In this document: positions 27,125 to 62,641 of the stretch, piece after piece
How positions within the stretch are numbered: the first letter of the stretch is position 1
Layout of the letters: each line of letters opens with the position of its first letter
IMG/VR virus record: IMGVR_UViG_3300045970_000794
Location: 1-64,000 of that record
DNA from: a virus
DNA: 64,000 nt
Direction: 5' to 3' (one strand)
Translations under genes and position numbers: made by a program
Notes under the pieces: generated by a model
Seen by the model: the letters and a program-made list of their open reading frames with translations, nothing else
Told to the model about the DNA's origin: nothing
Databases searched by the model: none

Positions 27125-27130
27125 ATTTAG

Positions 27131-27201: not shown

Positions 27202-27207
27202 TAATTG

Positions 27208-27280: not shown

Positions 27281-27293
27281 AAAAAGTCAAGGG

Positions 27294-27670: not shown

Positions 27671-27751
27671 TGATTTCCTATTAACTCTTCCTAACACCCT
27701 AAAGTGGGTGGGTTGACAGAACTTCGGATAGATTTTACTCTGTTCAGTTAG

Positions 27752-45063: not shown

Positions 45064-45064
45064 T

Positions 45065-45877: not shown

Positions 45878-45878
45878 T

Positions 45879-46637: not shown

Positions 46638-46667
46638 CTTATTTAATTTTTTTGATTATATTTTGGT

Positions 46668-46976: not shown

Positions 46977-46994
46977 AACTGGTTTTTTAATTAG

Positions 46995-47065
46995 TAAGTA
47001 CCAAGAGATTCGAACTCTCATCCCACAATGAACATGTGTATCTTTGCCAATTAGACGAAGTACTC
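46995..47065 (-). tRNA. tRNA-like, 71 nt, anticodon uncertain
   Basis: Acceptor GAGTACT/GGTACTT, D arm GTCT-AATTGGCAA-AGAT and T arm GAGAG-TTCGAAT-CTCTT. The anticodon arm CACA-TGTTCAT-TGTG has G at position 33. Confidence 0.4.
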
Positions 47066-47459: not shown

Positions 47460-48446
47460 TTAATCTTTTTTCAAAGACTCCAAATAATGTCCAAATGATT
47501 CCCAGATAATATCTTCATCTGTATTAAGAATGAACTTATTAAAGTTCTGGAATTTAGATTTATATCCCATGATAGCTTTACCCAAATCTGGACCAACCAA
47601 TCCGAATTTCCTAGTAATCTTATCACCATTAAACTTAGACTGAGTATATAGCTTTTCAGCATATTCATATTCAATCCTACGAATTTCAGTAGGTAGATTA
47701 GCATCTGGAAATGCAAAATCAATTGTTGGAATATATTTGTTTTTATCAGCTTCAAATTCATACTCCTTTTTAACATTATTCGTTTCAATCCACTCCAATA
47801 GAGACATATAACTAGCTCTTTTTATGTTTCTTTCACGATTAATATGATTCAAAGTATCCATTTGATATTGTCTCCAATCAAAATATGGTGAAGACGCAAC
47901 AAATTCAAATATATCTTCCAATGTATCAAATCCTTGTTCCCATCTTTCATATGATAGTCCAAAAAATTCGAAAATCTGTTTATAATCCTTTGAAATGGTA
48001 ATTGTACCAAGATTATGTCCCATATGATTAAAGTATTTGAACCACAACCCTTCTTGACCGTATTTCAAGCCAAATGGATGTGCCAAACGACCAATCATAT
48101 TACCCAAATCGTTATACGAAAGATACATGTAATTGCTATGGAAATCTTCGGGTGATGTTGTAATCAAATCAACCTGTATTTCCTTATAATCAAATGACCA
48201 GCAATTCCCATTGTGAAAAATTTCGTTTGGATGGAATTCATCATGGATTATTGTCATGATATCTTCCCGACCTGTTACTTCACACAATACATTAATATCA
48301 CCAAATGTTTCTTTCTTTTTATAAAACAATGGAATTGCAACATTTTTGAAATGATTCTCAAATTTTGGAATCACTTCATATGCTAGCATATCAAATTCGT
48401 CTCTATTATACCTTCTGGTAAATGTTTTCAATGCTCTTCCACCCAT
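47460..48446 (-). CDS. nucleotidyltransferase-fold protein (tentative), 328 aa
   Basis: MGGRALKTF...KKKETFGDINVLC resembles the Pol-beta NTase G[SG]..GD.D motif, with the second Asp replaced by Asn. Confidence 0.5.
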   Translation of the reverse strand: MGGRALKTFTRRYNRDEFDMLAYEVIPKFENHFKNVAIPLFYKKKETFGDINVLCEVTGREDIMTIIHDEFHPNEIFHNGNCWSFDYKEIQVDLITTSPEDFHSNYMYLSYNDLGNMIGRLAHPFGLKYGQEGLWFKYFNHMGHNLGTITISKDYKQIFEFFGLSYERWEQGFDTLEDIFEFVASSPYFDWRQYQMDTLNHINRERNIKRASYMSLLEWIETNNVKKEYEFEADKNKYIPTIDFAFPDANLPTEIRRIEYEYAEKLYTQSKFNGDKITRKFGLVGPDLGKAIMGYKSKFQNFNKFILNTDEDIIWESFGHYLESLKKD

Positions 48447-48461
48447 AATAAACCTCCTTTT

Positions 48462-49013
48462 TTATTTTTTAGCTGAATCATCTGCGGCACCAAGTAATGA
48501 TAATTTATCAAAATATGATAATTCTTGCATCGCTTTAACCTTAGATGACTTCATAATGTTTAACTTATGATAACGCATGTGATTATAAACCAAATTACCA
48601 ATTAATTCTGGGTTACCTCCCATGCTTGTAATCCAACCAGCATCTTGTCTAACCAATTTAGCACTAGCTACCTCATGACCGATTGATTGTGATACACCAT
48701 CCAACTTTGGGTGTGGTGTTTTAGTCGCTTGTTTACCTAAATCATGGTATAATGCGGCTAATATCAAATCCATATCTTGTTCTTCAGCTGGTACATTTAT
48801 GAATTGATTAGTAACACCCATGATATGTTCATAGGTATTACCTTCTTGATGATATTTTGGATTTTCCTTAAAATCTTTCAATTGCTCAAGTATTCCTTTA
48901 ACATGCGCTGGTGCCATATTAACCAACTCATCAAATGAATTGATATGTTTTTTAACAGCCAATGCTTCTTTCAAATTAGATAATTGAGACTCTGTTACTA
49001 TTATTTTTTTCAT
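48462..49013 (-). CDS. HD-domain phosphohydrolase
   Basis: ...YEHIMGV...ALYHDLGK... Confidence 0.7.
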   Translation of the reverse strand: MKKIIVTESQLSNLKEALAVKKHINSFDELVNMAPAHVKGILEQLKDFKENPKYHQEGNTYEHIMGVTNQFINVPAEEQDMDLILAALYHDLGKQATKTPHPKLDGVSQSIGHEVASAKLVRQDAGWITSMGGNPELIGNLVYNHMRYHKLNIMKSSKVKAMQELSYFDKLSLLGAADDSAKK

Positions 49014-49014
49014 T

Positions 49015-50397
49015 TTATTTTTGTAACCCCGCTGTTAATATTAATTTTAATGCCGCAGCTAATTCATTTTCTTTTAAATTATGTTGTTTTAGTTGAGCAT
49101 GTTCCATTTGTTTTTTGTATGAATTAGCTGCGATGATGATATCGTTAGCACTAATCAAGCTAGCTTTACGGTTAATCATATAAGCTTTAGCTCTGTCAAT
49201 GATTTCACTTGCGAATGCTGGAACAATACCAACTAACGCTTCAGCAGCTGCATCACGATTATTAGCTTCAATTAATGATTTACCATTATTATCAATTACT
49301 AATGTATTGATGAATTCCAACGCAGTTTCTTTATCCAAAGAACCCAATGATATTAAACCACCAATTCTTTTACCTCTTAGGAATGTTGGCTCAATCAATT
49401 CAATGTGATTAGTTGTAAAAATTGAAATGATTGCTTTATTTTTAGTATCACCACCATCCAATGTATTCAAAATACGTTGAATTGCTGCATCACGATTACC
49501 TCTAACTGCTTGGTCAATATCTTCAGTGAAGACAACAATACCTTTTTTTGATTTAGTGTAATTTTCGCAAATTTTAAGCGTGGTAGCTAAATTTTTACAA
49601 TCTTTCAAGTAAATGAAAGTCCAACCATTTTCAACCGCAAGTTTAGCAATTAAAAAAGCGATAAGCGTTTTACCAGTACCATATGGTCCTTCTAATAATA
49701 CACCGTATTTAAGGTCTAATCCTTCTTCAATACATCTGTCAGTATCACGAATTCTAGCAAGTATTGGAACTAACCCTTCTTTTGCTTCTTTACAAAGTAA
49801 GATTTTACTTTCATCAATATTTGATAAATCCAAAAATTCTGGTTCTTCAATATTACCATTACTATCAAATTCAATATTAATGGCTCTTCCAGTATATAAG
49901 CTACTAGTATCTAAAATACGTTGAGCTTCTTTCATGATATCATTAACTTGATATTGGAATTTCATTCTGATGGTACCAGTAATTGATAATTCAACAGTTT
50001 CCCAATCATAATCCATTGATAAATAACTATCTTTATCAAATGCTGGAAGTCTTACAGTTCCAAATGGAATTTGAATTTCTTCACCATTAGGTAATAAAAC
50101 ATTAATCAATTGTGGTGGCTCATCACCACTTTCACCTTTACTGGCAGTTATATCACAATGACCAATAACATTTTCAACAGCTTGAAATAATGCTAAAGCA
50201 CCTTCATGTTCGAAACATTTGAAAGTATAAGTAACATCAACAATTTGTTCTTCAACTTTAACCCTGTCAAACATGTATTTAATTGCATCATTAAAACCTT
50301 TAGTATCAATGGCTTCATGCAATTGGTCTAATTTATCAGTGTCAATTTTATTCACTTTCGTGTTCAAGTTTGTGTCCAAGTTTGTGTCCGTGTTCAT
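49015..50397 (-). CDS. AAA+ ATPase
   Basis: Walker A EGPYGTGKTL and Walker B IVVFTEDIDQA. Confidence 0.75.
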   Translation of the reverse strand: MNTDTNLDTNLNTKVNKIDTDKLDQLHEAIDTKGFNDAIKYMFDRVKVEEQIVDVTYTFKCFEHEGALALFQAVENVIGHCDITASKGESGDEPPQLINVLLPNGEEIQIPFGTVRLPAFDKDSYLSMDYDWETVELSITGTIRMKFQYQVNDIMKEAQRILDTSSLYTGRAINIEFDSNGNIEEPEFLDLSNIDESKILLCKEAKEGLVPILARIRDTDRCIEEGLDLKYGVLLEGPYGTGKTLIAFLIAKLAVENGWTFIYLKDCKNLATTLKICENYTKSKKGIVVFTEDIDQAVRGNRDAAIQRILNTLDGGDTKNKAIISIFTTNHIELIEPTFLRGKRIGGLISLGSLDKETALEFINTLVIDNNGKSLIEANNRDAAAEALVGIVPAFASEIIDRAKAYMINRKASLISANDIIIAANSYKKQMEHAQLKQHNLKENELAAALKLILTAGLQK

Positions 50398-50654
50398 TTT
50401 TTAGTTCTTTAGCGTGTTTATAAATTTCAATTACTTTTTCATTTGTATCTTCTAAACAGTCAATCTTAACCAAACCTTTATTCCATTGCCTGACTTTAGA
50501 TTCACCGAAATATTTTACTCTTTTCGATTTTTTACACTTCATAAAATTTTCAATCTGACGTAATGAGCCAGTAACACCTTTACAGGTAACATAAACTTCC
50601 CCATTTATTGTTTCAAAAACAACAGGATAACCATTAAATATAATTTGATTTTCC
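50348..50654 (-). CDS. hypothetical protein with a His/Lys repeat tail
   Basis: Start trimmed to MENQIIF; its 3' end overlaps the AAA+ start inside a short tandem DNA repeat. Confidence 0.5.
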
Positions 50655-50716
50655 ATAGTGAGTAATTTAATTTTTTGCAAAGGTAAAACAAATATTTTTA
50701 ATAAACAAATATTTTA

Positions 50717-51175
50717 TTAAATATTTTCAGATTTAATTCGATTTTCAATAATTTTATCTACACTTTCCCAATCTACGTAAGGACGCTTACCTTCTTCATA
50801 AATTAATGGACACCCAACAGCTGCATCATCAACATAAAGCTGACCATATGCTTTAGGGCTTCTAGTCCAGTATTTTTGAGTAGGATTGGAATTAACACCA
50901 TAAAATTCTAAACCATTTTTCTTACACCAATCAACCGCTTCTTGTAAACAATCACGGTCAACATATTCTATTGTTTCTTCGTTAGTATTAGGGTCAATAC
51001 TAACTATTTTTTGGTTGTAAGGTTTACTACTTCTCATAGTAAACAATATTATTTTAGCACCAGCTTTTTGATACTTTTTAAGATATTCAAAAGCTTTTGG
51101 TACTTCCTTACCGATTTCTGGATAGACGTGTTCACATAGTGTGCCATCAAAATCCACACAAATTGTTAATCCCAT
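50717..51175 (-). CDS. HAD-superfamily phosphatase
   Basis: DxDGT motif ICVDFDGTL and a distal YVDDAAVG. Confidence 0.65.
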   Translation of the reverse strand: MGLTICVDFDGTLCEHVYPEIGKEVPKAFEYLKKYQKAGAKIILFTMRSSKPYNQKIVSIDPNTNEETIEYVDRDCLQEAVDWCKKNGLEFYGVNSNPTQKYWTRSPKAYGQLYVDDAAVGCPLIYEEGKRPYVDWESVDKIIENRIKSENI

Positions 51176-51238
51176 AATTTTCTGTTTTAAGTTGTTATTA
51201 ACCCATTTTCAATGAGTCTGTGAATATATTTAGAATGC

Positions 51239-51940
51239 TCAATATTTTTTTCTATTTATTTTAATATCTCGATTTATCTTACTACATAATGGCTGTAAAT
51301 TACTATAGTGATTTAATTTAATTAATTCTTCTTCTGTTTTGGCTGAAGATAACGGTATAATATGGTCAATATCCCAGCCATAACCATACTCACCATTATA
51401 TTTACCATAGTTATCCCAATTCATCCATGGCTCAAATTTAACTTCCAGATGTAGTTTGAAGTCTTCGAATGAACAATCAAGAATTTGATAAGTTTTAGAT
51501 GATTTTGAATAACCATTTCTTCTGAATGAATCACTTATCATACTACGATAATTACATGTTAATCTATACACCATATCACTTTTCTTTCGGTTTGTATGAT
51601 ATTCACCAATTTTAGTTTTATTTTCAATACGATAATTTTTTTGATAAGTTTTTATATTATCAGAATTTTCAATTCGATATGATTTCTGATAATCCTTTAC
51701 TTTATCTAAATTATCAATAAAATATTTTCTATTTTTAATATCAATTACTTCATGATTTTCAGAATAATGTTTTTTTTGTTTTTCTTTTATTATTAATTTA
51801 TTATTTTTTCTATATTCAATATCATAATTACGTTTACATTCTTTACAAATACTATTAAATCCATCTAAACTTTTATTATTTAATGAAAATAATTCCAATA
51901 ATTTTTCATTATTACACTTAATACATTTTTTAGTTTCCAT
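51239..51940 (-). CDS. HNH-type homing endonuclease
   Basis: Cys-rich N-terminus; GWDIDHIIPLS...NLQPLCSKINRDIK. Confidence 0.7.
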   Translation of the reverse strand: METKKCIKCNNEKLLELFSLNNKSLDGFNSICKECKRNYDIEYRKNNKLIIKEKQKKHYSENHEVIDIKNRKYFIDNLDKVKDYQKSYRIENSDNIKTYQKNYRIENKTKIGEYHTNRKKSDMVYRLTCNYRSMISDSFRRNGYSKSSKTYQILDCSFEDFKLHLEVKFEPWMNWDNYGKYNGEYGYGWDIDHIIPLSSAKTEEELIKLNHYSNLQPLCSKINRDIKINRKKY

Positions 51941-51987
51941 AATCTATTTTATAATAAATATATGACAAAATAAAAAAATATTAAACA

Positions 51988-52485
51988 TTATAATATTAAC
52001 CCCATTTCGAGTAATTTATGAATGTATTGTGAGTGAGCTATGAATTTTTCATTTGCATGTCCAATCGACATATGTAAACCCCAATGTGGTCTACCAAGAC
52101 CTAATTCAGCTCTAATTGCATGAATTTCATCCCTATCTTCATTTGGTATGTTTAACCACCAGTGTTTACTATCAGTTCTAGCATCAACAGATAATACAAT
52201 TTTAATTGTCTTACCATCCCATTTTTCTTTAACTGATTCCCACTGATTTAATCCAAATTCACCTAATTCTCTATGACTATCATTGATAAAAGAAATATGT
52301 GAACCTCTGAGCGGCTTATTTAATATAAGATTATATCGTTTATTGATGAACCAAGCATAATATTCAGCAACATCACCATCAATCATAATCATAGCAACAC
52401 GTTTCCATGATGATTGTGCATTATGTTTATTCGTCACATTCACTGGTTCAAATACTATTCTACCTATTACTTCAATCTTATTCAT
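51988..52485 (-). CDS. putative 2H phosphoesterase (LigT / cyclic phosphodiesterase-like)
   Basis: Two H-x-S-x motifs with appropriate spacing: RGSHISFI and GLHMSIGH. Confidence 0.45.
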   Translation of the reverse strand: MNKIEVIGRIVFEPVNVTNKHNAQSSWKRVAMIMIDGDVAEYYAWFINKRYNLILNKPLRGSHISFINDSHRELGEFGLNQWESVKEKWDGKTIKIVLSVDARTDSKHWWLNIPNEDRDEIHAIRAELGLGRPHWGLHMSIGHANEKFIAHSQYIHKLLEMGLIL

Positions 52486-52503
52486 TATAATTTAATCCCT
52501 TCG

Positions 52504-52992
52504 TTAGTCGTTTTCACTTGGAACAAATTGATATTTTGGTGTAAAATTATTAGGGTCACAAATTACTTTCTTATCATAACCAGCTTCTTTCATTCGGTCT
52601 TCTAATTCAATAAAATTTCGAACACCATCTAAAACCGCTCTATCAATTTGAACTGAAATTTCAGCAGCTAATATGGCAGTTAATTCAGCTTCAGCATCAA
52701 TATTAGTATACGCTGCTATGTCTTGAGCCATTTCTGGTGACCACGTAGCATGTATTTTTCTAAGTGTATTCCACTTATCCCAATCAACACCTTGACTTAT
52801 AACCCAGATTTCAATTATATCACAAATTTCACCACGCTTGAACCCAAATACATTAACCACTTCGTTAATCGTATCACAAGCCCAGCGTTTTCTACCAGTG
52901 CTAATTGAGTAAACATTATTATCTCGAACTACAAACGTTCGTTCTAAATAATTATGAATATAATCCGATGTTGTTTTATATTTCCCTTCCAT
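52504..52992 (-). CDS. hypothetical protein (162 aa)
   Basis: ORF track. Confidence 0.55.
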   Translation of the reverse strand: MEGKYKTTSDYIHNYLERTFVVRDNNVYSISTGRKRWACDTINEVVNVFGFKRGEICDIIEIWVISQGVDWDKWNTLRKIHATWSPEMAQDIAAYTNIDAEAELTAILAAEISVQIDRAVLDGVRNFIELEDRMKEAGYDKKVICDPNNFTPKYQFVPSEND

Positions 52993-53032
52993 ATAAACTT
53001 AAATATATGGAAAAGAAACATAAAAATAAAGA

Positions 53033-53452
53033 TTATCTCAACTTAATACTAAATCTTTCTAACATTCTAGTCAATGAAGTTTCTGGAACGTTATGTACGT
53101 TCGAACCACCATGTCTGTTTTCAACAATAAGTGAGAATACCATATATCCGTACTTTTCAGCCAAATCAATGTATGGTTTCAATTCTTTATCAGTTGTTGA
53201 TGTGTTAGCTACTATAACCCTAGCTTCGCCAGCAATCATAGCATTTTCACACTTTTCAAAACAAAGTTTATGAGCAATACCCAATGCATTTGCATTGAAT
53301 TTGTATTCACCATCTTTCATGAAAAAATCGTCAGCACAACAAATCTTAGCGTTAAGGATTGAATCCATATCACCATAACCTTGTAACATTTCGGCAACTG
53401 TTGATTTACCACAGCCCGATATCCCTCTTAAAATAATTAAATGCTTCTTCAT
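53033..53452 (-). CDS. P-loop kinase (AAA_33 / polynucleotide-kinase-like)
   Basis: ILRGISGCGKST. Confidence 0.6.
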   Translation of the reverse strand: MKKHLIILRGISGCGKSTVAEMLQGYGDMDSILNAKICCADDFFMKDGEYKFNANALGIAHKLCFEKCENAMIAGEARVIVANTSTTDKELKPYIDLAEKYGYMVFSLIVENRHGGSNVHNVPETSLTRMLERFSIKLR

Positions 53453-53557
53453 ATTCGTAATCTTTTAAATCAATCTTATTCAAGCTACAAAATTACATAA
53501 AATAAATCAAAAAAGCAAATTAATTAGCAAAAAAAAATCCCCATATGGGGATTTAAT

Positions 53558-53962
53558 TTAACAATGCTTACCACAACATGTGGATTCACTACAGCAGTCT
53601 GGCTCATCATTGCATTCACATATGTGAGGCTCTGGCTTTGTAATGCTTTCTATCGTATACTCATAATTAGTATCATCAACTAAAATCATATCAGTATCAG
53701 TAGTAGTTGTTGCTTTATATAATAACTCAATAAACTTAGGGTCGGTTATATCAACACAATCCTCAGTTTGGAAGGTCCAATATTCAATTGAGTTTGTTCT
53801 ATAATGAGTTGAGAGTGTATGGTGACCAAAAAAGTATAAATCACTATTCTTTTTTGATTTAAAGGTTACATTCACAGTTTTTATTCCTAAATAAGAGTTA
53901 ATTCCAAATGCGAAGGTTGAAATAACTATGATGAATATCAATAATAATATTAGTGTTTCCAT
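53558..53962 (-). CDS. membrane-anchored protein with a Cys-rich tail
   Basis: N-terminal transmembrane segment; ends ...CECNDEPDCCSESTCCGKHC. Confidence 0.5.
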   Translation of the reverse strand: METLILLLIFIIVISTFAFGINSYLGIKTVNVTFKSKKNSDLYFFGHHTLSTHYRTNSIEYWTFQTEDCVDITDPKFIELLYKATTTTDTDMILVDDTNYEYTIESITKPEPHICECNDEPDCCSESTCCGKHC

Positions 53963-53979
53963 AATTTAAGTGTTAAAAG

Positions 53980-54270
53980 TTAAAATCTTCTTGTATCATC
54001 GGTAAATAAGTTAGAGTTACTAACTAACCAATTATATACTGTATTTTGTGTTGCTGGTGGTATTGGATATCCTTGCATGTATACTACATCCATTACAATT
54101 TCAAATTCAGTTCCAGCTGGAAATTGCATTCCATTAGGTAGTGATGCTTTTTCTTTTAAGCGTAAAACTTGTTGTTCAATTCTTGTGTGTCCCATTTTAA
54201 TAATTTTTAAGACTTTGTTATAAGAAAACTTGGACCCTAATGGACCCAAGTTTTTATTTAATCTAATCAA
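53980..54270 (-). CDS. hypothetical protein (start uncertain)
   Basis: ORF track. Confidence 0.45.
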   Translation of the reverse strand: MIRLNKNLGPLGSKFSYNKVLKIIKMGHTRIEQQVLRLKEKASLPNGMQFPAGTEFEIVMDVVYMQGYPIPPATQNTVYNWLVSNSNLFTDDTRRF

Positions 54271-54290
54271 TAACTTATAAAAGTATAGTT

Positions 54291-54728
54291 TTAATTATCA
54301 ATATATGGTTTATACTCACGTGGCAATGGTACCGTAGCACCTTGTGGTAATTCACCAACATTGCAGAAGGAATAATTGAACTTAACCATTGCGGCGTTAT
54401 ATTCAGCAGCTAACCCATTATAACTAGCTTTAACACCAGCTTCTTCTGATTGCCAAACTGAATACTGTTCTCTATCGTCTCTTGCCCAATCTTTACGAGA
54501 AACACCTTTATATTGTTCCTTTAAATCCGTTAATCGAGTTTTGTAAACGCCTAAGTCAGCCATTTTTTTGTCAAGTTGAGCACTCATATCTTTGAAATAT
54601 TCATATTTCTTCAATAAAGCACTTGGTTTGAATTCCTTGAAAGCGGTATCAGCACCATCTTGGAAATATCTACATGATGACATCAAAGTCATCATGCAGA
54701 TTAATATAATGATTAATTTATTTCTCAT
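54291..54728 (-). CDS. lipoprotein (145 aa)
   Basis: MRNKLIIILICMMTLMSSC. Confidence 0.55.
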   Translation of the reverse strand: MRNKLIIILICMMTLMSSCRYFQDGADTAFKEFKPSALLKKYEYFKDMSAQLDKKMADLGVYKTRLTDLKEQYKGVSRKDWARDDREQYSVWQSEEAGVKASYNGLAAEYNAAMVKFNYSFCNVGELPQGATVPLPREYKPYIDN

Positions 54729-55257
54729 CGTTTACGTTTGTTAATTCCATGTTAAGAACAATATTTTTAACTGCTAATGGTTGGTCTGAAATATGTAACA
54801 TCATACCACCTTGGATGTATTGTTGGTGATAAACACCTTTAGTATCCCACCAGTAAATATAATCAACTGAAGAACCATAAGTACCATCATCTTGAATTAA
54901 TTCTGGATTATACTCACCACTACTTTGATATGAATAATGAACAACCGATGGAGGACTTAATCTTTTACCAGAAGATGTTACTTTACCTTTTACTGTTGAA
55001 TAAACAAGAACTTGTCCAGAATAGGCTGAAATAATGTATAAATGTTTAATCGAACCTGGTGTATTATCCATTTTGTAACGAGCAATGATGTTGTTTTGTT
55101 CAGTAGTATGACCATTTGCATCTGTTTGAATAGTGGTACTTGCTTTTTCAACCCCACCGCTTGAAACTGGAGCTTTTTTAGTGAACTCATCACACGATTG
55201 AAGTGATAATGCTACAACTCCAATTACAATTAATAATAACATATTTAATCTTTTCAT
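54718..55257 (-). CDS. lipoprotein
   Basis: MKRLNMLLLIVIGVVALSLQSC. Promoter TTTG-N20-TACTTTTG lies at 55339..55370. Confidence 0.55.
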   Translation of the reverse strand: MKRLNMLLLIVIGVVALSLQSCDEFTKKAPVSSGGVEKASTTIQTDANGHTTEQNNIIARYKMDNTPGSIKHLYIISAYSGQVLVYSTVKGKVTSSGKRLSPPSVVHYSYQSSGEYNPELIQDDGTYGSSVDYIYWWDTKGVYHQQYIQGGMMLHISDQPLAVKNIVLNMELTNVNDEK

Positions 55258-55338
55258 TTTGAAATACAATTACCTATACATTGCGAGGTTCTAGTTTTAC
55301 TTTTTTTAATTAATAATTTTTTTGTTTAATTGAGAGTA

Positions 55339-55370
55339 CAAAAGTATAAAATATATTTTAATAAACCAAA
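55339..55370 (-). promoter_or_regulatory. Bacteroidota-type promoter TTTG-N20-TACTTTTG
   Basis: The -7 box is at 55346-55339 and the -33 element at 55370-55367. Confidence 0.5.
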
Positions 55371-55397
55371 TAAAAATGCATTTATTTTTAAATTATT

Positions 55398-55877
55398 TTA
55401 TAACCCACTGAGTTTGTTAATTTTATCAATTAACCAAAGTCTTGCTTTAGTTGATATAGTAGCACTAATATCTTTAGGTTCAAAACCATTTTCAACGATG
55501 GTATCCAATTCTTCTTTAATAACATCATTATAAACCCATTTTAAATAGGTTTCAATGTTTTTATGTTCAACGGTTAGATTTTCTTGTCTTAAATAATCTA
55601 AACCTTGTAATAGTCTAGCTTCACTAACAACAGTATCAACCAATTCTTTAATTGAATTGACTTTTTCAATATCAATCGGAACCTTTTCTTTAGTTTTAGT
55701 ACCTTTGTGTTCTTCACCTTTAGTTTTGAAAGCAAATCTTGTAGTGCACCAGCCTTCATCGACTGGGAACCAAACAATTCCCTCACCAGTCATATTAATA
55801 TCCACTTTTATCGTATCTTCAAAATCTTCTTTAGATTTATTTTTATTTCCACCAACCAATTTAAAAGTATATTCCAT
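55398..55877 (-). CDS. C-terminal part of a split Rnl2-type RNA ligase (motifs IV and V)
   Basis: GEGIVWFP (motif IV) and FAFKTKGEEH (motif V) lie after a ~30-aa unrelated head. Confidence 0.55.
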   Translation of the reverse strand: MEYTFKLVGGNKNKSKEDFEDTIKVDINMTGEGIVWFPVDEGWCTTRFAFKTKGEEHKGTKTKEKVPIDIEKVNSIKELVDTVVSEARLLQGLDYLRQENLTVEHKNIETYLKWVYNDVIKEELDTIVENGFEPKDISATISTKARLWLIDKINKLSGL

Positions 55878-55889
55878 ATTTCTATTATT

Positions 55890-56669
55890 TTAATTTTTAT
55901 ACTTACAATACCAGCCCTTATATTGAATAAAATCTTTATTTTTAGGTGGTAATTTATCGAATAATTTATATTCACCATTACTTATTTTAGATTTAATTAA
56001 TACCCTTTTAGGTAAGTTAAATTTTCGACATAAATCATCAAATTCAAAATTATTCGTAACATGAATAACATTGTCATTATTATCAATAATTAACACATCG
56101 CTTTTATTACTATTTGGATTATTCATACCCTTATTTAATCCATTTTTCTTTTGGGTGATAGATGATTTTTCGCCGATTATTTTAAAAATTTTTTCATTAA
56201 TCATCAACAGTGTATGTTTCCTTTTTTCAACCGATTCCCTAGAATCCCTATTTTTTAATGCAATACTTATTTTTTTCTTAGTTTCTTTAGATGGCTCGCC
56301 CTTTTTAACACCCAAATGTGACTTCTGAAGCCTAATTTTAGTTTCATCAGTATGCTTATACCCTATAGTCCTATCAGATTTTTTACAAATATTATAACCA
56401 TATTCATCGTTATATGATTCAAATAAATCGATATAAAATTGCTCTCTATTTTTTAAATCATTCAAATCATTAACATACTCTAAAATATCAAAAATAAAAT
56501 TATCTTTACCATACTTATTCCAACTATGTTGTATTTTTTTTGAATGGTGCTTATTCTTTTCTAATAATCTTAAATGCCTTTTCTTCCTATCTTCAAAATT
56601 AGATGATGAACCGACATAAACTTTACCATTTACTAAATTTTTAATTAAATACACAACCAATTTCCCCAT
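55890..56669 (-). CDS. GIY-YIG homing endonuclease lying between the two RNA ligase parts
   Basis: VVYLIKNLVNGKVYVGSS...YNICK. Its upstream 24 nt are nearly identical to those of HNH gene 24560..25267. Confidence 0.8.
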   Translation of the reverse strand: MGKLVVYLIKNLVNGKVYVGSSSNFEDRKKRHLRLLEKNKHHSKKIQHSWNKYGKDNFIFDILEYVNDLNDLKNREQFYIDLFESYNDEYGYNICKKSDRTIGYKHTDETKIRLQKSHLGVKKGEPSKETKKKISIALKNRDSRESVEKRKHTLLMINEKIFKIIGEKSSITQKKNGLNKGMNNPNSNKSDVLIIDNNDNVIHVTNNFEFDDLCRKFNLPKRVLIKSKISNGEYKLFDKLPPKNKDFIQYKGWYCKYKN

Positions 56670-56713
56670 AAATTATATTTAATTATAAATATATACCAAA
56701 GGTGAAAAACACT

Positions 56714-57538
56714 TTAAATTAAGTTAATTTTTATATAATTAACACCTATTGGATTTTTTTTTCGTAATTCAATAAAATACGGTTTTAATTTATCTTTTAA
56801 CGGAACTTCAAACCCATTTTCTTTTTCAAACCATATTTTACCGTCTTCAGACTCATACGCAACATTATTATTCCAAACTTCCACACCAAAAGCCCTACCA
56901 AATGGACATTCCTTTTCAACCGCTTCAACCAATTTAGCCATTATATCAGCAGCAACCACTGGGTTGTTGAAATTAACTTCGATTTCGTATGTGTCATAAT
57001 CTAAAATATTGAAAATCTTAGCTTCTGGTATCTTAACTAACTTTAATTGTTCGTCATTAATCCAAGCCTCACCAATTTTAATAGCAAAGATTACAAATCT
57101 TTTATCAAGCTGATTCAAAGCAACACCCTTCTGGATGCTACCACCACACCATTCACCATAGATTCTAATATCTGGATTCACCTTTTCATCAGTACCATAC
57201 TTTTTAAGGTCTGGCAATAATTCTAAAAGACGAAATACGTCATTAGTATATGCAAAAGTAGCGAAGCCAGCATTATCTTTTGCTGGAGTAATAATATTTT
57301 CTCTTGATTGAGCGTGAAAGTCATATGCTGCAAGGTCTATATCATATTGGAATATAATACCACCATTAGTACCATGAAGTTTAACACTACCTCTAAATTT
57401 AAGAGTTGGTAGTTTGATTGTTTCATCGAAAATTGGTTCACCAGAATCATCTTTACCAGTGAATTGTGTACGATACTTAACAGATACTATAACACTTCTG
57501 AATTGTTCAATATCTGGAAATGAGTAAAATTTTTTCAT
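56714..57538 (-). CDS. N-terminal part of a split Rnl2-type RNA ligase (motifs I-IIIa)
   Basis: SVKLHGTN (motif I; T4 Rnl2 has KIHGTN), IRIYGEWCG and FVIFAIKI. Ligase-like sequence ends near ...CPFGRAFGVE (about 56879), followed by a 54-aa unrelated tail. Confidence 0.6.
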   Translation of the reverse strand: MKKFYSFPDIEQFRSVIVSVKYRTQFTGKDDSGEPIFDETIKLPTLKFRGSVKLHGTNGGIIFQYDIDLAAYDFHAQSRENIITPAKDNAGFATFAYTNDVFRLLELLPDLKKYGTDEKVNPDIRIYGEWCGGSIQKGVALNQLDKRFVIFAIKIGEAWINDEQLKLVKIPEAKIFNILDYDTYEIEVNFNNPVVAADIMAKLVEAVEKECPFGRAFGVEVWNNNVAYESEDGKIWFEKENGFEVPLKDKLKPYFIELRKKNPIGVNYIKINLI

Positions 57539-57558
57539 ATTTTTATTTTATTTTATTT

Positions 57559-57981
57559 TTATTTTAACACCCAGATGTTTGGAACCCAAACTCTTTCGTA
57601 TCTTATTTTAGATGCTTCACTATTAGCCCAAGCTTCAAAACAAGGCCCACATATTGTTTGAATCCAATCATGTGTTCTACCAACATTTTTAGTTGTACCA
57701 CACACTTCACACATCTTATCCGACATTCCGCTAGCAAACATTTCATACGCTAATAGTTTATCGTTACCACCATTATGGTATATACGTAATGTACCAAATT
57801 TTTCTTTAATTTGAATAATTTTAACTGGTGGCATATTATTCCACTTGATATCATGCCTAATCAATTCGAAAAATGTTTCAATGATAGGTAACCAACCATC
57901 ACCACACGTTGGATATGCATGCGGACCATCAAATAAATCAGCATATTTTTTAATTAATTCGTCTCTTGTTATCATAATCAA
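57559..57981 (-). CDS. hypothetical protein (140 aa)
   Basis: ORF track; has a CEVCG...CGPC pattern. Confidence 0.55.
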   Translation of the reverse strand: MIMITRDELIKKYADLFDGPHAYPTCGDGWLPIIETFFELIRHDIKWNNMPPVKIIQIKEKFGTLRIYHNGGNDKLLAYEMFASGMSDKMCEVCGTTKNVGRTHDWIQTICGPCFEAWANSEASKIRYERVWVPNIWVLK

Positions 57982-57982
57982 C

Positions 57983-59380
57983 CTATATTAAACCTTTAGC
58001 CATAGCTTCTATTTGCTTAATCGATTCTAATGAATCACATGTATTCTTATCATCCCTCAATTTCTTGAAAACTGGGTGTAGTAAAGCATAATTACCTTTT
58101 GAATCATGAGTCAACCCAGAACATTTAACCTCTAAGATTGTATTCATCAATTTTTCTTGATTCTCAGTGATAAACGCCATCATTTTCTCATCAATACCAG
58201 TAGGTCTAGTATTAACCAAGCCATCGGATGATGTTACGGTTACTGATGAAACAAAATTTTCGTTCTTACCTGTACCATAATTAAACCCTACGATTATAAG
58301 GTCAATATCCATTTCCAGCTTCATTTTAATTTGCCAGTTTGGTTTTCCATCCTTCCAAGCACCATCAAAAGCTTTTAAGATAAGTCCTTCTTCACCATTA
58401 TTCAAAGCTTCTTGGAAATATGCCAATGCATCTTCAAATGATTCTAAAACACGACCATTAACAATTGAAATCATCAATGTATCATCTGAGGTTCCATATG
58501 ACTTTAAAATTAAGTCACCTAAATTATTTAAACGTTGAGAATAAGGTACATTTGATTTAGCATCGAAATATTCATCAATAGTTATCGTATCCCATACGGT
58601 AAACTTAATTGCATCCAATGCTTGTTGGTAATAATAACCATGCTTATCATAGAGCTTCTTAATATCTTTAGTTGGGTCTTCATTTTTCAGTAATTTATTA
58701 CCAATTGAAATCAATGATGCAATGACACCGTTACTTTCATAACGTGATATACCTGGTATAGTTAATTCACCATTCAAAACGCAATCACCAAATCTTTTTA
58801 ATTGGTCAACAAACCTAGCACCAGTTAAAATGGATGCTTCACCTTGACGTGACTCCAATTCAACTTCACCACCACGGATAATTGCATTACAATAACGACC
58901 ATCCATTTTAATTTGCCCGAATACACGTTTACCACCTTCGAAAAGCTTTTTAACTAATTTAACATCGTAAGATTTTGCACCCATATAAGGTGTATCTTCA
59001 ATTAATTTAGTAAATACTTTATTCATAAAAGTAGTACCCATACCAATTTTACAATCTTTTTCAATGATACGCTCAATTATATAAGCATCATCATAATTCA
59101 AATGAGTAAGAATTGTCTTTAAATAAGATATCGCCTCATTACCAGTAAACTCACGTTTCATTAGTTTCTCTAAATCAACTAAAGCAGCGTCTAAACTACC
59201 ATTAAATCCATTATTGGTATATTCTGGAATCTGTTTGATGTAAAACTTAACTCTTTTGGAGTTAGCTAGATATAGAACTCTTTTTAACAGTTCATTATCT
59301 TTATACTTAGCCAAGATTTCCATCTTTTTAATGGTTGAGGATTCGTTGGCAATCTCGTTAAAAATGTATCTAATTTTCAT
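57983..59380 (-). CDS. ATP-dependent DNA ligase
   Basis: Motif I GQIKMDGRY, plus EGLILK and an OB-domain-length C-terminus. Confidence 0.85.
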   Translation of the reverse strand: MKIRYIFNEIANESSTIKKMEILAKYKDNELLKRVLYLANSKRVKFYIKQIPEYTNNGFNGSLDAALVDLEKLMKREFTGNEAISYLKTILTHLNYDDAYIIERIIEKDCKIGMGTTFMNKVFTKLIEDTPYMGAKSYDVKLVKKLFEGGKRVFGQIKMDGRYCNAIIRGGEVELESRQGEASILTGARFVDQLKRFGDCVLNGELTIPGISRYESNGVIASLISIGNKLLKNEDPTKDIKKLYDKHGYYYQQALDAIKFTVWDTITIDEYFDAKSNVPYSQRLNNLGDLILKSYGTSDDTLMISIVNGRVLESFEDALAYFQEALNNGEEGLILKAFDGAWKDGKPNWQIKMKLEMDIDLIIVGFNYGTGKNENFVSSVTVTSSDGLVNTRPTGIDEKMMAFITENQEKLMNTILEVKCSGLTHDSKGNYALLHPVFKKLRDDKNTCDSLESIKQIEAMAKGLI

Positions 59381-59394
59381 ATCTATAATATTAT

Positions 59395-59913
59395 TTAGTT
59401 TGTAAATCCCATTAATCCATCAAGTTCTACCCACATTGGCCGTAATGATTTATTACTAGGGTTGTAAAGCATTTCTCTGAAATGAACATATTCAGCTTTG
59501 TAGGTATCACCCATTCGGTCATTATTTTCAATTGATGCTCTTGCATTAGCAATTCTATCAGCCACTTTTAATGTAACTGCAAGGGCATTTAATCTCATTT
59601 GAAGGTATAACTCATCTGGCTTACGTTCAGTCCTGTTATGACCTTTAAAATCAGTAACAAGATAAACAATGTCAGCAATTTCTTTTCCGAACACTTTTTT
59701 AATGTCATTATAAGTAAATCCACAATCTTCCATTGTATCATGTAAAACACCACTTGTTCTTAAAATATCATTATTTTTGAACCCATATTGAACTAAAATG
59801 GAATCCACATCATCATAATGAGTGTAATATGGTTGACCCCTGTAACTCTTTGTTGCATGTGCAACACACGACATTTTAATCGCTTTTAAATGATTTTCCG
59901 AAATTTGTATCAT
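59395..59913 (-). CDS. HD-domain hydrolase of the SpoT/MESH1 type (putative small alarmone hydrolase)
   Basis: ...SGVLHDTMEDCGFTYNDIKKVFGKEIADIVYLVTD... Confidence 0.6.
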   Translation of the reverse strand: MIQISENHLKAIKMSCVAHATKSYRGQPYYTHYDDVDSILVQYGFKNNDILRTSGVLHDTMEDCGFTYNDIKKVFGKEIADIVYLVTDFKGHNRTERKPDELYLQMRLNALAVTLKVADRIANARASIENNDRMGDTYKAEYVHFREMLYNPSNKSLRPMWVELDGLMGFTN

Positions 59914-60012
59914 AATTTTTTTTTACAAAGATACTATTTTTTTTTAACTTTTCCAAATAATATGATATTTATTTTAAACAATCTTCAATAATATCATGTA
60001 AAACTCTAAAAT

Positions 60013-60645
60013 ATGGTGATTTATAAAACTACAAACTTAATTAATGGTAAAATTTATATCGGGCAAGATTCTAAAAATAACCCAAATTATCTTGGTAGTG
60101 GTAAAATATTAGTTGTAGCAATTAAAAAATATGGTAAAAAAAACTTTAAAAAAGAAATATTAGAAAAGTGTGAAACCAAAGAACAATTAGATTTAAAAGA
60201 ACAATATTGGATAGTCAAATATAATACTTTAGATAAAACCATAGGGTATAATATAACCAAGGGTGGTGGTGGTACTTTAGGTTTAAAAACTAATCTAGGT
60301 AGAATTTTTAGTAAAGAACATAAATTTAAAATTAGTGAAAACCATGCTGATGTTTCTGGTGAAAAAAACCCAATGTTTGGTAAGTCTCATAAAACCTCAG
60401 TTAAAGAAGCTCAAAGATTACGTATGTCTGGAACAACAGCCTCAGAAAATACTAGAAAAAAAATGAGTGAAAAAAGACAAGGTGAGCAAAACATTAATTC
60501 AAAATTAACAGAGTTACAAGTGATTGAAATTAGAAAATTATACTTTGAAGATGATTTAAAAATTTTTGAAATCGCAAAAATATATGCAGTTAAACCACCA
60601 TGCATACATAAAATAGTTAATTTTCTTACTTGGGCTAATATTTAA
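60013..60645 (+). CDS. GIY-YIG homing endonuclease
   Basis: MVIYKTTNLINGKIYIGQDSKNNPNYLGSG...YNITKGG, with NPMFGKSH. Confidence 0.8.
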   Translation: MVIYKTTNLINGKIYIGQDSKNNPNYLGSGKILVVAIKKYGKKNFKKEILEKCETKEQLDLKEQYWIVKYNTLDKTIGYNITKGGGGTLGLKTNLGRIFSKEHKFKISENHADVSGEKNPMFGKSHKTSVKEAQRLRMSGTTASENTRKKMSEKRQGEQNINSKLTELQVIEIRKLYFEDDLKIFEIAKIYAVKPPCIHKIVNFLTWANI

Positions 60646-61094
60646 TTAGTTAATTTATCTAAAGCCTTTGTTAATTTATCAACCTCTTCTTGTTTCTCAC
60701 TGAGTAATAACATCATTGATGATTTTACCCTTTCTTCAGTCTCAACAATTTCTTTAATGTATTTATGCTTCGACATCAAACACTCAATCTCATTATCCAA
60801 TATTTTCAACGTAGCTTTTCTATCAGATTCGTTAGTATGAAATTCATGCTCTTTATTTTTAGTATCATTAGCACAATTTATTGCAGTTTCCTTTATTTCA
60901 GTACAATAACGCTCATAGGATTTATTATGTTCAACAATCACCGATTGTAATTTGGAAAGTAAACCTTCTTTAATACCAACCATTTCATCCCTAATTTTAG
61001 ATTCTGATTCTAATTTAAAAGCTTCTAACTCTTTTAGAATTAAATTACGTCTTCTATTAGCAAATATCCTAAGTAATAAATTAATCATTACCAA
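60642..61094 (-). CDS. coiled-coil hypothetical protein
   Basis: ORF track. Confidence 0.5.
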   Translation of the reverse strand: MVMINLLLRIFANRRRNLILKELEAFKLESESKIRDEMVGIKEGLLSKLQSVIVEHNKSYERYCTEIKETAINCANDTKNKEHEFHTNESDRKATLKILDNEIECLMSKHKYIKEIVETEERVKSSMMLLLSEKQEEVDKLTKALDKLTN

Positions 61095-61336
61095 TTAATT
61101 TGTAATGAACTGCCATCACGTTGGTCATCATGCGTTTGACATTTAAACCCACGTTTCTGTAATTCAGTTATTGTTAACGGGTCAGCATATATTCCTACAT
61201 AGCATGACATTTCATTTCTTTCTACAGCACTATTAATATATGATAAACACATGTTTAATTGTTTTTCAACTTTTTCACCTAAGATAGATGTTGCTGTTTT
61301 TCTAGCCCATTCGGCTGTAATTTGATTGTTGTTCAT
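61088..61336 (-). CDS. hypothetical protein (82 aa)
   Basis: ORF track. Confidence 0.5.
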   Translation of the reverse strand: MNNNQITAEWARKTATSILGEKVEKQLNMCLSYINSAVERNEMSCYVGIYADPLTITELQKRGFKCQTHDDQRDGSSLQINW

Positions 61337-61508
61337 AATCGTTTGGTTTTATTAAATTAAAATAATCTACAATCACAATATCATATTCATTATGACGTAA
61401 AATTGGTGGATTAAAAAAATTAGTTGATTCCCTTTGAGGTTGTGTCGCTGTTACAATCACAACCTCTGGGAATAACTCTTTAAATTTATTTAAATCAATA
61501 GCTTCCAT
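61302..61508 (-). CDS. hypothetical protein (68 aa)
   Basis: ORF track; overlaps the downstream ORF. Confidence 0.4.
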   Translation of the reverse strand: MEAIDLNKFKELFPEVVIVTATQPQRESTNFFNPPILRHNEYDIVIVDYFNLIKPNDYEQQSNYSRMG

Positions 61509-61510
61509 AT

Positions 61511-62641
61511 CTAAAGAATACTGTATAATTTTCGATTATCAAATTCAATCATATATTCTTTAATATTTGATATTTTACCATCTTTCAATCCGAACATAAG
61601 TCCAGTAAAGTTAGAAACTCCATTTTTCTTAGTAACTTCAAATACAGCCTCAGCATACTTTTTCTTTTCAGCTGGTGTAATGTTCTTTGGTAATCTTCCT
61701 TGTAATTCTTCCCATGTTTCAGTCAATTTTACCACTAACATATTGTATTTAACATGAAGGTCAAAGATTTCTTCCCTACGTTCTGGGAATGTAGCTGCAA
61801 ATTCTTCAATTTCGTTAGTTTTAACGATTTCTAGAATATTATATTCAGCAGTCTTAGACTTCAAGTGATGTACCGCAAGATATGCTGGATTTTTAATTTT
61901 AATTCTATTGAAGGAACCATCAACAACAACATATCCTTCTTCAGTGAATGGCATACCATCAAAAGTTCTCTTCAACGCACCAACATCCTTAATATTAAGG
62001 TCAAATCGCTTAACTGCTGGTGTGAATAAATACCCACTCACATAAACTAAACTATCATATGGTGCTTCACCCAATGTAGATAAATCCCTAATTGTTAATA
62101 AAGTTACTGATGATACACCGTGTGGTGTAACAACAATATTATATGGTGTTGTTAATTCAAATGCATAACACCATTTTTTATTTAACGCTAATTTGAATCT
62201 ATGATTATTACCAGTAACCTTTTCAATAGTTTCCCAGAATAAATCAGCGAAAGTAGTACCCATTTTATTGTTTACTTCACCTTCTGCTTCAGCCATACCA
62301 GATGTTGAAACACACCAATCATTCTTATGCCAATCCCAATACAATTGCATTAAGGACCCATCCACCTTTTCAAGTATATGAGCAGTATCCCAATCAATTC
62401 TAGCTGCATGAGTTTCTTCAGCATTAAAGAATTTACGGAATGTAAAGCACATAACTCTCCAAGTATCCTTTTCTAATATAATACCTCTAGCATCTTGTGT
62501 TTCAGCAAAACCCATTGGAGACTCTAACTGGTCATATTTTAATAAGATTTTCTTATCATATACCTTAGTCTTCAATTTAAATGTATCAATAGCCTTAGCT
62601 AGACCATTTTTCTTAATATAATTTATTAATGCTAGTTCCAT
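61511..62641 (-). CDS. rnlA: Rnl1-type RNA ligase (T4 RnlA-like)
   Basis: DARGIILE, FRKFFNAEE, motif I ILEKVDGSL, FELT, EGYVVV and RIKIKNP. Confidence 0.75.
   Translation of the reverse strand: MELALINYIKKNGLAKAIDTFKLKTKVYDKKILLKYDQLESPMGFAETQDARGIILEKDTWRVMCFTFRKFFNAEETHAARIDWDTAHILEKVDGSLMQLYWDWHKNDWCVSTSGMAEAEGEVNNKMGTTFADLFWETIEKVTGNNHRFKLALNKKWCYAFELTTPYNIVVTPHGVSSVTLLTIRDLSTLGEAPYDSLVYVSGYLFTPAVKRFDLNIKDVGALKRTFDGMPFTEEGYVVVDGSFNRIKIKNPAYLAVHHLKSKTAEYNILEIVKTNEIEEFAATFPERREEIFDLHVKYNMLVVKLTETWEELQGRLPKNITPAEKKKYAEAVFEVTKKNGVSNFTGLMFGLKDGKISNIKEYMIEFDNRKLYSIL

Follow-up and report, generated by a model that had tools for sequence, protein, structure and literature searches.

Why would a phage encode several RNA ligases beside candidate kinases and phosphoesterases of RNA ends? 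The question is raised by a 64,000-nt stretch of the phage record IMGVR_UViG_3300045970_000794 (hereafter the window, meaning this whole stretch of DNA). Phage RNA repair is a known counter-measure to host tRNA-cutting defences. A first-pass annotation of the window had proposed a complete-looking set of RNA end-healing and sealing enzymes, encoded as separate proteins, and had tied this set to the tRNA-splicing chemistry of fungi and plants. All of the open reading frames (ORFs) that it named were found at or near the positions it gave, all on the minus strand, and the core of the proposal was upheld by profile and structure searches. We hold, with moderate confidence, that the window carries partly redundant modules for healing and sealing broken RNA, which would serve T4-style tRNA repair as a counter-defence.

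RNA ligases and predicted end-healing enzymes in two gene blocks

The features that carry this reading are the following.

61511..62641, minus strand: Rnl1-type ATP-dependent RNA ligase, 376 aa, motif I KVDG (PF09511, 3.1e-13)
56714..57538, minus strand: N-terminal piece of an Rnl2-type ligase (motifs I-IIIa, residues 1-218) with a conserved 55-aa tail (PF09414)
55890..56669, minus strand: GIY-YIG homing endonuclease gene inside the Rnl2 gene (PF01541, 1e-10)
55398..55877, minus strand: C-terminal piece of the Rnl2-type ligase, with a conserved 30-aa head, motif IV EGIVW, motif V FKTKG and the C-terminal domain (phrog_548)
53033..53452, minus strand: standalone P-loop kinase, 139 aa, AAA_33/polynucleotide-kinase-like (AAA_33, 7.6e-8)
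51988..52485, minus strand: putative 2H phosphoesterase, 165 aa, H63-I-S and H138-M-S (family motifs, fold, transitive Pfam match)
48462..49013, minus strand: standalone HD/HDIG phosphoesterase, 183 aa (PF01966, 4.4e-8)
21319..22071 (ATG at 22053), minus strand: third ligase, PF09414 type (1.2e-26)
18922..20046, minus strand: HD-Pnk, an N-terminal HD phosphoesterase fused to a C-terminal polynucleotide kinase, 374 aa (AAA_33, 1.1e-19; HD, 2.7e-4)

The Rnl1-type ligase was confirmed by a PF09511 score above the cut-off (50.5 bits against 28.3), by the sequence EKVDGS readable in its translation and by T4 Rnl1 as its nearest PDB structure (2c5u, 1.5e-6); the PDB alignments ended at about residue 265. 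It also matched TIGR02308 (4e-14) over model positions 48-332 of 373, at 52.4 bits and thus under the equivalog cut-off of 242. In the T4 Rnl1 family, specificity for tRNA comes from the C-terminal domain. The gene of the window ligase was syntenic and co-oriented with the 2H gene in 40 of 80 related loci, the set to which all of the synteny counts below refer.

Candidate healing enzymes were found both fused and separate. The standalone kinase, a P-loop kinase as first proposed, scored above the AAA_33 cut-off (33.2 bits against 27) and matched phrog_2071 (3e-40) and phrog_505, a polynucleotide kinase family (5.8e-9). It is 25% identical to the kinase half of HD-Pnk over 138 aa (E 6e-4), while the standalone HD protein, which resembles the HD region of CCA-adding enzymes (TIGR02692, 2e-12), is 27% identical to residues 26-132 of HD-Pnk (E 4e-7). 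The two standalone proteins are paralogs of the two halves of HD-Pnk, which supports the claim that the set is encoded as separate proteins. The kinase gene lay near the 2H gene in 10 of the 80 loci and the HD gene in one.

A bacterial LIG–HD-Pnk cassette

The HD-kinase fusion and third RNA ligase noted in the second block were both borne out. In HD-Pnk, the HD domain (residues 44-151) and AAA_33 (231-360) are laid out as in the Runella/Deinococcus-type protein, and the kinase half matched the kinase domain of C. thermocellum Pnkp (4gp7, 2e-5). The protein has 1940 homologs and is about 52% identical to Bacteroidota proteins of the same architecture. The third ligase had no sequence relative in the PDB; it is 53-58% identical to its orthologs in a Cytophagaceae genome and in Chitinophaga flava. 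Both of these genomes have the HD-Pnk ortholog (52%) directly adjoining the ligase ortholog, with the ligase upstream. A related phage contig carries the same pair with two genes between; the pairs of the two Bacteroidota genomes and the related phage show 52-63% identity to the window proteins. In the window, the ligase and HD-Pnk genes are co-oriented and set apart by three genes, which encode an HNH endonuclease, an unknown 232-aa protein and a 105-aa putative nucleotidyltransferase (NTase). The window pair is a phage copy of the Bacteroidota LIG–HD-Pnk cassette and is of bacterial origin. On the related phage contig L091, genes for NAMPT, Macro and PRPP synthetase were seen downstream of HD-Pnk.

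In Runella, where the Shuman laboratory described it, the LIG-HD-Pnk cluster also holds a true Tpt1; the ligase was reported to form the ligase-AMP intermediate and yet to leave the standard 3'-OH/5'-PO4 substrates tested unsealed (PMC6097658). The title of Munir & Shuman (2017), cited in PMC6097658, has HD-Pnk acting on DNA as well as RNA ends.

An Rnl2-type ligase, probably in two polypeptides

The split Rnl2-type ligase had been recognised correctly. Its N piece matched PF09414 (3.1e-10, 40.9 bits against a cut-off of 27) and its C piece covered positions 195-339 of 341 of the phrog_548 RNA ligase (2e-20), with the GIY-YIG gene between them. Alignment to the intact RnlB of phage RSP15 located the motifs KLHGTN, YGEWCGG, EGIVW and FKTKG in the pieces and placed the break between ...ECPFGRAFGV and GEGIVW, that is, between motif IIIa and motif IV. 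Together the pieces hold the motifs and the C-terminal domain of the Rnl2 family, distributed over two polypeptides instead of one.

In about 50 related IMG/VR loci the ligase is intact, and residues 1-218 of the N piece run in frame into residues 31-159 of the C piece. The same split was found in six relatives (L069, L070, L071, L074, L075 and L077), each with a GIY-YIG gene of 319-331 aa. Across these relatives, of 43-53% identity, the N piece keeps its 55-aa tail and the C piece its 30-aa head as protein sequence, and the positions of the stop and the start at the split are conserved as well. An independent second split, after residue 152 and with a different GIY-YIG gene, was present in L003 and L065.

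An Rfam search of positions 55300-57600 returned no intron at the gathering score or at E<=1. A group I intron was therefore rejected, on the lack of an Rfam match and the conservation of tail and head as protein, and so was an intein, since the N junction lacks Cys or Ser and the extensions are too short. That the tail of the N piece might be a decayed second copy of motifs IV-V was weakly supported (BLASTP E 0.028), although tblastn alignments overlapped in about 20 relatives, and this reading was set aside too. Because no intron was matched and the extensions are conserved as protein, we prefer a genes-in-pieces reading. The conservation of the split architecture at the protein level in six relatives suggests that this Rnl2 is probably a ligase of two polypeptides that is still functional.

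Homing-endonuclease genes were unusually dense in the window (1978-2883, 17608-18255, 21051-21362, 51239-51940, 55890-56669 and 60013-60645). Four of the six are GIY-YIG genes, one is a Pfam-confirmed HNH gene and one is HNH-like by motif only, and several interrupt or set apart repair genes.

Two further genes adjoin the Rnl2 gene in relatives.

57983..59380, minus strand: ATP-dependent DNA ligase, 465 aa (PF01068, 7e-10)
53980..54270, minus strand: 96-aa protein of no family, following Rnl2 in relatives

The DNA ligase gene was present in 61 of the 80 loci, just upstream of Rnl2 and co-oriented with the 2H gene. The 96-aa protein, with no match in Pfam, was present in 69 of the 80. Its gene starts at or just past the Rnl2 stop codon in L074, L069 and L054, with stop and start overlapping in L074, and the protein may be a partner of the ligase.

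A new 2H-like phosphoesterase family tied by synteny to the ligases

The putative 2H phosphoesterase gave no direct match in Pfam, NCBIfam or the PDB sequences. It has 557 homologs at about 60% identity, without Pfam annotation, and its family forms 315 clusters at 50% identity. The motifs His63-x-Ser and His138-x-Ser/Thr hold throughout the family; when 40 divergent members are compared, invariance is limited to His63, Arg125 and His138, with the consensus HITxIND and HxTIG. In an AF2 model (pLDDT 93.6) each His motif falls on a predicted strand (E63-70 and E138-144), as expected of a 2H enzyme. The top PDB hits of this model in Foldseek were all 2H enzymes, at weak scores (E 0.08-3, TM 0.33-0.41), and included the poxvirus cGAMP phosphodiesterase, Usb1, LigT and Acb1; hhalign of the family against E. 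coli ThpR was not significant (E 0.15). Of the 40 distant relatives, 27 matched Pfam PF22547 2H-SAK (best 1.2e-6) and five matched LigT_PEase. PF22547 models the 2H domain found in the RNA-repair protein called "Swiss Army Knife". The clearest link of the 2H protein to known 2H enzymes is the transitive one through its relatives, and the protein represents a new, well-conserved phage family related to 2H-SAK. The initial call of a putative 2H enzyme was sustained.

The 2H gene is co-oriented with Rnl2 in 62 of the 80 loci. Since all of the synteny lies within one phage lineage, it counts only modestly towards a functional link. A 162-aa ORF (52504-52992), the immediate upstream neighbour of the 2H gene, contains a 49-residue match to the T4 Gp23 major capsid family (6.5e-11) and keeps this position in 22 of the 80 relatives.

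Genes of the blocks with other affinities

Three further genes had been counted among the repair genes.

50717..51175, minus strand: small HAD phosphatase, DFDGT, BT0820 family (PDB 2obb, 5.5e-17)
47460..48446, minus strand: PolX-like NTase-fold protein, 328 aa (phrog_24943 'DNA polymerase', 1e-33)
20036..20353, minus strand: 105-aa ORF with a G-S...D-x-D pattern, putative minimal NTase (pattern only)

For the HAD protein the DxDGT motif stood, as DFDGT, and membership of an RNA-repair phosphatase family did not: it belongs with BT0820, matched NF046079 under the cut-off (3.7e-25) and phrog_1238 (5e-32), and none of the Pnkp or SAK-HAD models was matched at E<=0.01. Its gene was near the 2H gene in three of the 80 loci.

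Of the NTase-fold protein reported next to an HD protein, the HD part was right and the NTase fold was faintly recovered. The profile of the 328-aa protein reached the Thermus PolX palm in the PDB weakly (E 0.07). All 12 aligned relatives have FGD[AIV]D where the window protein has FGDIN (residue 52), so a metal-binding Asp, the second catalytic one of GDxD, is replaced, and the protein may be an inactive copy or the result of a sequence error. Its gene lay downstream of the 2H gene in 28 of the 80 loci and adjoined an HD gene in one.

The minimal NTase kept its G-S...D-x-D pattern and gained no family: the 105-aa ORF had no significant match in Pfam, PHROGs, NCBIfam or the PDB (best Polbeta, E 0.27). 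Neither this ORF nor 47460-48446 had a Pfam match to PF10127 (RlaP) or PF01743. The HD and NTase genes were also considered as a split CCA-adding enzyme. This candidate was rejected: the NTase is PolX-like, no PolyA_pol head domain was found, and the adjacency of the two genes in one of the 80 loci makes it unlikely even though 26 of the 27 tRNA genes of the window lack an encoded CCA.

The main block (47.4-62.6 kb) also encodes an HD_4 protein, an AAA ATPase and three homing-endonuclease genes, to which no RNA-repair role is assigned. The HD_4 protein (59395-59913) is RelA/SpoT hydrolase-like. Its gene separates those of the DNA ligase and Rnl1, and it probably hydrolyses alarmones and does not act on RNA ends.

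A KptA-like ADP-ribosyltransferase with a shared leader

15941..16568, minus strand: KptA/Tpt1-like ADP-ribosyltransferase (ART), broken by a 1-nt insertion, with a 21-aa leader ending in VNE (restored frame)

The Tpt1/KptA-like ORF of the first-pass annotation proved to be two ORFs in different frames, with an extra T in the run at 16235-16237. With one T removed, the product is a 208-aa protein that matches intact homologs of 206-208 aa at 89% identity from end to end, the junction LYHITPTSNVENIL included. Apart from the single extra T, the DNA is 90% identical to that of the related contig L093, which points to an assembly error or a very recent inactivation.

The KptA-like fold was recovered; the Tpt1 N-lobe was not. 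PF01885 was matched below threshold in 28 of 30 ART homologs, over about 35 residues (17.4 bits against a cut-off of 26 in homolog P0121), and some homologs also matched PARP and DarT. For an AF2 model of P0121 (pLDDT 85), the top 18 Foldseek hits in the PDB were KptA/Tpt1 structures (probability 1.0, 5.7e-7 to 1e-3), at TM values of just 0.35-0.45. The hhalign comparison of the family with E. coli KptA aligned 36 columns, at the start of the NAD-binding lobe. The conserved LYHITP and R139-I-Y-V-S are those of an ART-fold NAD-binding C-lobe, where an R133-H134-K135 loop also lies. Of the catalytic tetrad of Runella Tpt1, Arg16, His17, Arg64 and Arg119 (PMC6097658), only the last Arg has a counterpart in the alignment, R139. 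A conserved Arg-His pair is missing from the N-lobe, whose helices and strands also come in a different order from those of Tpt1. The 2H-like, Tpt1-like and kinase ORFs all fall in the superfamilies first proposed for them, and the refuting outcome named in the first-pass annotation did not occur.

The gene neighbourhood of the ART points elsewhere. In the window, 2.4 kb separate the gene from HD-Pnk upstream. Five further contigs showed neither an RNA ligase nor a kinase within 7-10 kb of it, and in relatives it sits in clusters of small genes that bear the same leader; a search of IMG/VR for related ART loci gave three partial matches only. The first 20 or so residues of the ART (MSEDIRKMIDKVKNFKQFVNE; in relatives MKDLRKFIATTIREYLNE), ending in [LV]-N-E, recur at the N-termini of otherwise unrelated neighbouring proteins. 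Leaders were located in the window (16506-16568, minus strand) and in L093:973-6874, L086:7437-11889 and L088:2518-6120. Six ORFs of the 7-kb contig L093 carry one, including a second ART (ART-PolyVal), as do several in L086 and L088. Five or more unrelated protein families, encoded next to one another in related phage contigs, begin with this leader, and two of them are ADP-ribosyltransferases.

T4 internal proteins have a common 10-residue capsid targeting sequence that is cut after Glu by the prohead protease, and the T4 ADP-ribosyltransferase Alt is packaged and injected (PMC9026906). The leader looks like such a T4-type capsid targeting sequence with a prohead-protease site. Because it is common to unrelated genes, and RNA-repair neighbours are absent in the other contigs, the ART is probably a capsid-targeted effector that would be injected as Alt is, and it most likely stands outside the RNA-repair pathway.

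tRNA array and NAD+ salvage genes

24310..47065, minus strand: tRNA array of at least 27 genes, between the two enzyme blocks (ARAGORN, Rfam)
5850-7424, minus strand: NAD+ salvage, NAMPT (PF04095, 1.5e-42; PF18127, 1.8e-31)
7975-8961, minus strand: NAD+ salvage, NMN adenylyltransferase-Nudix fusion (NUDIX, 7e-13, and CTP_transf_like)

Insert-bearing tRNAs had been taken as a sign of dedicated splicing, which was not substantiated. According to ARAGORN, the extra length of most long tRNAs comes from enlarged variable arms, not introns. The sole clean anticodon-loop insert is in tRNA-Phe(GAA) (33743-33833), where 17 nt (ATTAGCAATAATCTACG) stand between nucleotides 34 and 35 and their removal gives a perfect tRNA-Phe(GAA) cloverleaf. 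The insert is too short for a group I intron and folds as a GNRA hairpin (GCAA cap) with a 6-nt one-sided bulge; the fold contains no bulge-helix-bulge motif. No group I introns were found in the tRNA cluster, and no match to the insert-bearing tRNA-Phe was found in IMG/VR. As in the first pass, no splicing endonuclease (EndA-like) was seen among about 60 ORFs in a non-exhaustive scan. The tRNA inserts taken alone do not establish a need for enzymatic splicing.

A recurrent trailer other than CCA, discriminator-C-A-A(A), comes after about 19 of the tRNA genes (24310-47065). Three tRNA-like elements of 113-122 nt (33978-34099, 34242-34361 and 34931-35043) have normal acceptor, D and T arms and large internal inserts, two of which hold a second T-arm-like hairpin (GGTTCGAATCC and GGTTCGATTCC), and a weak, sub-threshold match to YrlA (Y RNA-like) was seen at 34986-35097. 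A calcineurin-like phosphoesterase is encoded at 10504-11067, near the NAD+ salvage genes.

Phage and host

The window is part of a Bacteroidota phage of about 360 kb. Its G+C content is about 30%, and an identical 2H protein is recorded on a 362-kb JGI contig. Megablast of a 15.6-kb block against GenBank phages gave no nucleotide-level relative, and the best protein matches of the window were uncultured huge phages. A type IX secretion system (T9SS) sorting domain, Por_Secre_tail (31615-33204), together with two genes 50-58% identical to Bacteroidota proteins, indicates a Bacteroidota host.

Proposed repair of broken RNA and the competing explanations

In the scheme that we favour, host defence ribonucleases would cut tRNAs or other RNAs and leave 2',3'-cyclic-phosphate and 5'-OH ends. 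The HD domains of HD-Pnk and of the standalone protein, together with the 2H-SAK-like enzyme, would open or remove the 3'-end phosphate, and the P-loop kinases of HD-Pnk and of the standalone protein would phosphorylate the 5'-OH. The break would then be resealed by the Rnl1-type ligase, by the two-piece Rnl2-type ligase or by the PF09414 ligase, which came from Bacteroidota along with HD-Pnk. Counter-defence would also be the theme of the NAD+ salvage genes and the 27-gene tRNA array. We infer the substrates, activities and joint action of the repair genes in this scheme from the analogy with T4 Pnkp/Rnl1 and with published genomics of jumbo phages.

Several points weigh against it. The activities of the enzymes, and any substrates of the HAD protein, the kinase and the 2H protein, are predictions from family and fold. 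Synteny within one phage lineage (50-60% identity) may reflect shared ancestry instead of functional coupling. The two blocks lie 25 kb apart, unrelated genes and no fewer than six homing endonuclease genes are scattered among them, and the main block also holds the DNA ligase and the PolX-like protein. Phage 2H enzymes can instead destroy immune signalling nucleotides, and Acb1 is among the weak fold matches of the 2H model. Finally, the Runella-type ligase reportedly failed on standard 3'-OH/5'-PO4 substrates (PMC6097658), and HD-Pnk is also an enzyme of DNA ends, going by the title cited there (Munir & Shuman, 2017).

In the strongest alternative, there is no unified toolkit and the genes are co-located and functionally mixed. 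Replication and the repair of nicks or gaps in DNA would be the task of the DNA ligase, the PolX-like protein, HD-Pnk and the kinase; the 2H and HD_4 (59395-59913) proteins would destroy host signalling nucleotides (cyclic oligonucleotides, (p)ppGpp); the ART would be an injected effector of host takeover; and tRNA repair would be left to Rnl1, perhaps with Rnl2. The presence of a PF01068 DNA ligase and HD_4 inside the block agrees with this, as do the PolX-palm similarity of the 328-aa protein, the Acb1 and poxvirus cGAMP phosphodiesterase fold matches, the DNA/RNA end-healing role given to HD-Pnk in the title cited in PMC6097658, the lack of linkage between the ART and RNA-repair genes in relatives, and the poor conservation of the kinase, HAD and HD genes beside the 2H gene (10, 3 and 1 of 80 loci). 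However, relatives of the 2H protein match the RNA-repair-associated 2H-SAK and not the Acb1 model, the 2H gene is accompanied by two RNA ligases in most relatives, and three RNA ligases with two kinase/HD sets are hard to explain through DNA metabolism alone. We regard the mixed set as possible, at a clearly lower probability than heal-and-seal modules.

Much less probable is the fungal/plant-type chemistry, used for tRNA repair or for the splicing of insert-bearing tRNAs. The 2H enzyme would open the cyclic phosphate to 3'-OH/2'-PO4, the kinase would act on the 5' end, the ligase would leave a 2'-PO4 junction, and the KptA-like enzyme would strip the 2'-phosphate with NAD+ that the phage regenerates. 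In favour of this, each of the four enzyme classes is represented at the fold level, NAD+ salvage genes lie 7-10 kb from the ART gene, the ART gene stands close to HD-Pnk much as a true Tpt1 clusters with LIG and HD-Pnk in Runella (PMC6097658), the clean tRNA-Phe(GAA) insert is too short to self-splice, and a 2H-then-KptA route in phages has been proposed (PMC9503650). Against this, the ART matches Tpt1 over only about 36 residues, under the PF01885 cut-off, with a different N-lobe order and no Arg-His dyad; its gene is frameshifted in this assembly, has a leader in common with unrelated cargo genes and stands away from ligases in five other contigs; Rnl1 resembles T4 Rnl1 more closely than Trl1; and neither a bulge-helix-bulge at the tRNA insert nor, in the non-exhaustive scan, a splicing endonuclease was found. 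The chemistry claimed at the outset is therefore judged unlikely, with an ART that is unlinked and no orthodox Tpt1, a T4-like Rnl1 and a scheme that had already been published for repair.

A last variant, an NAD+-dependent repair of the 2'-phosphate type in which the 2H-SAK-like enzyme would make 2'-PO4 ends, a ligase would seal them and the capsid-delivered ART, fuelled by NAD+ salvage, would remove the junction phosphate, with machinery that could also excise short inserts such as the 17 nt of tRNA-Phe, is a long shot.

Comparison with known systems

Heal-and-seal repair as favoured here has its closest precedent in the tRNA repair of T4 (Pnkp and Rnl1, with Rnl2 as a second ligase). The window likewise has Rnl1-type and Rnl2-type ligases, predicted 5'-kinase and 3'-phosphoesterase functions and a presumed role against host anticodon nucleases. 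It differs in that end healing would be carried out by HD phosphoesterases, P-loop kinases and a 2H enzyme, not by a kinase-HAD Pnkp, with HD and kinase as one fused and one separate pair; moreover, Rnl2 is in two pieces and a third ligase is of bacterial origin.

A second T4 parallel concerns the ART. As in Alt, a short propeptide-like N-terminal leader ending in hydrophobic-x-Glu precedes an ART, and, as with T4 internal proteins, several unrelated small proteins encoded side by side carry the same leader. Unlike in Alt, the ART domain is KptA-like, its packaging is predicted from sequence, and the prohead protease gene of this phage lies beyond the window.

With the Bacteroidota cluster of Runella slithyformis (Tpt1-MTase/HIT-LIG-HD-Pnk; PMC6097658), the window shares the same two proteins in the same order (52-58% identity) and an ART of the KptA kind nearby. 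In contrast, three genes stand between ligase and HD-Pnk, no MTase-HIT gene is present in the window, and the ART is not an orthodox Tpt1 and is frameshifted.

The fungal/plant Trl1 and Tpt1 system resembles the window in its classes: a covalent-nucleotidyltransferase ligase, a P-loop kinase, a 2H phosphodiesterase and an NAD+-using ART fold are all there. However, each window protein is encoded on its own, the ligase resembles that of T4, the Tpt1 N-lobe and a recognisable Arg-His dyad are missing from the ART, and neither a splicing endonuclease, among the ORFs scanned, nor a canonical intron was found in the window.

Several Rnl1 and Rnl2 ligases have been described in jumbo phages together with polynucleotide kinases, phosphoesterases of the 2H, HAD and HD types, NAD+ salvage, large tRNA sets and KptA-family ARTs (Iyer et al., 2021, PMC7824862; 2022, PMC9503650). 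Such toolkits have already been proposed to act in tRNA repair (PMC7824862, PMC9503650), with the 2H-then-KptA route made explicit in PMC9503650. The window has the same part list, including NAD+ salvage and a large tRNA set, and its toolkit is therefore of a known kind. It differs from these complements in that RtcB, RlaP (PF10127), cRec, Macro and SAK-type HAD were undetected among the window ORFs scanned, and in a 2H family without a Pfam model of its own. Current concepts stay unchanged unless the 2'-phosphate pathway is shown to operate. To the known complements, the locus adds a phage copy of the LIG-HD-Pnk cassette, whose ligase substrate eluded biochemistry on the bacterial enzyme, a large unannotated 2H family tied by synteny to two RNA ligases, an Rnl2 that apparently works as two polypeptides, and a KptA-like ART that seems to be a packaged effector.

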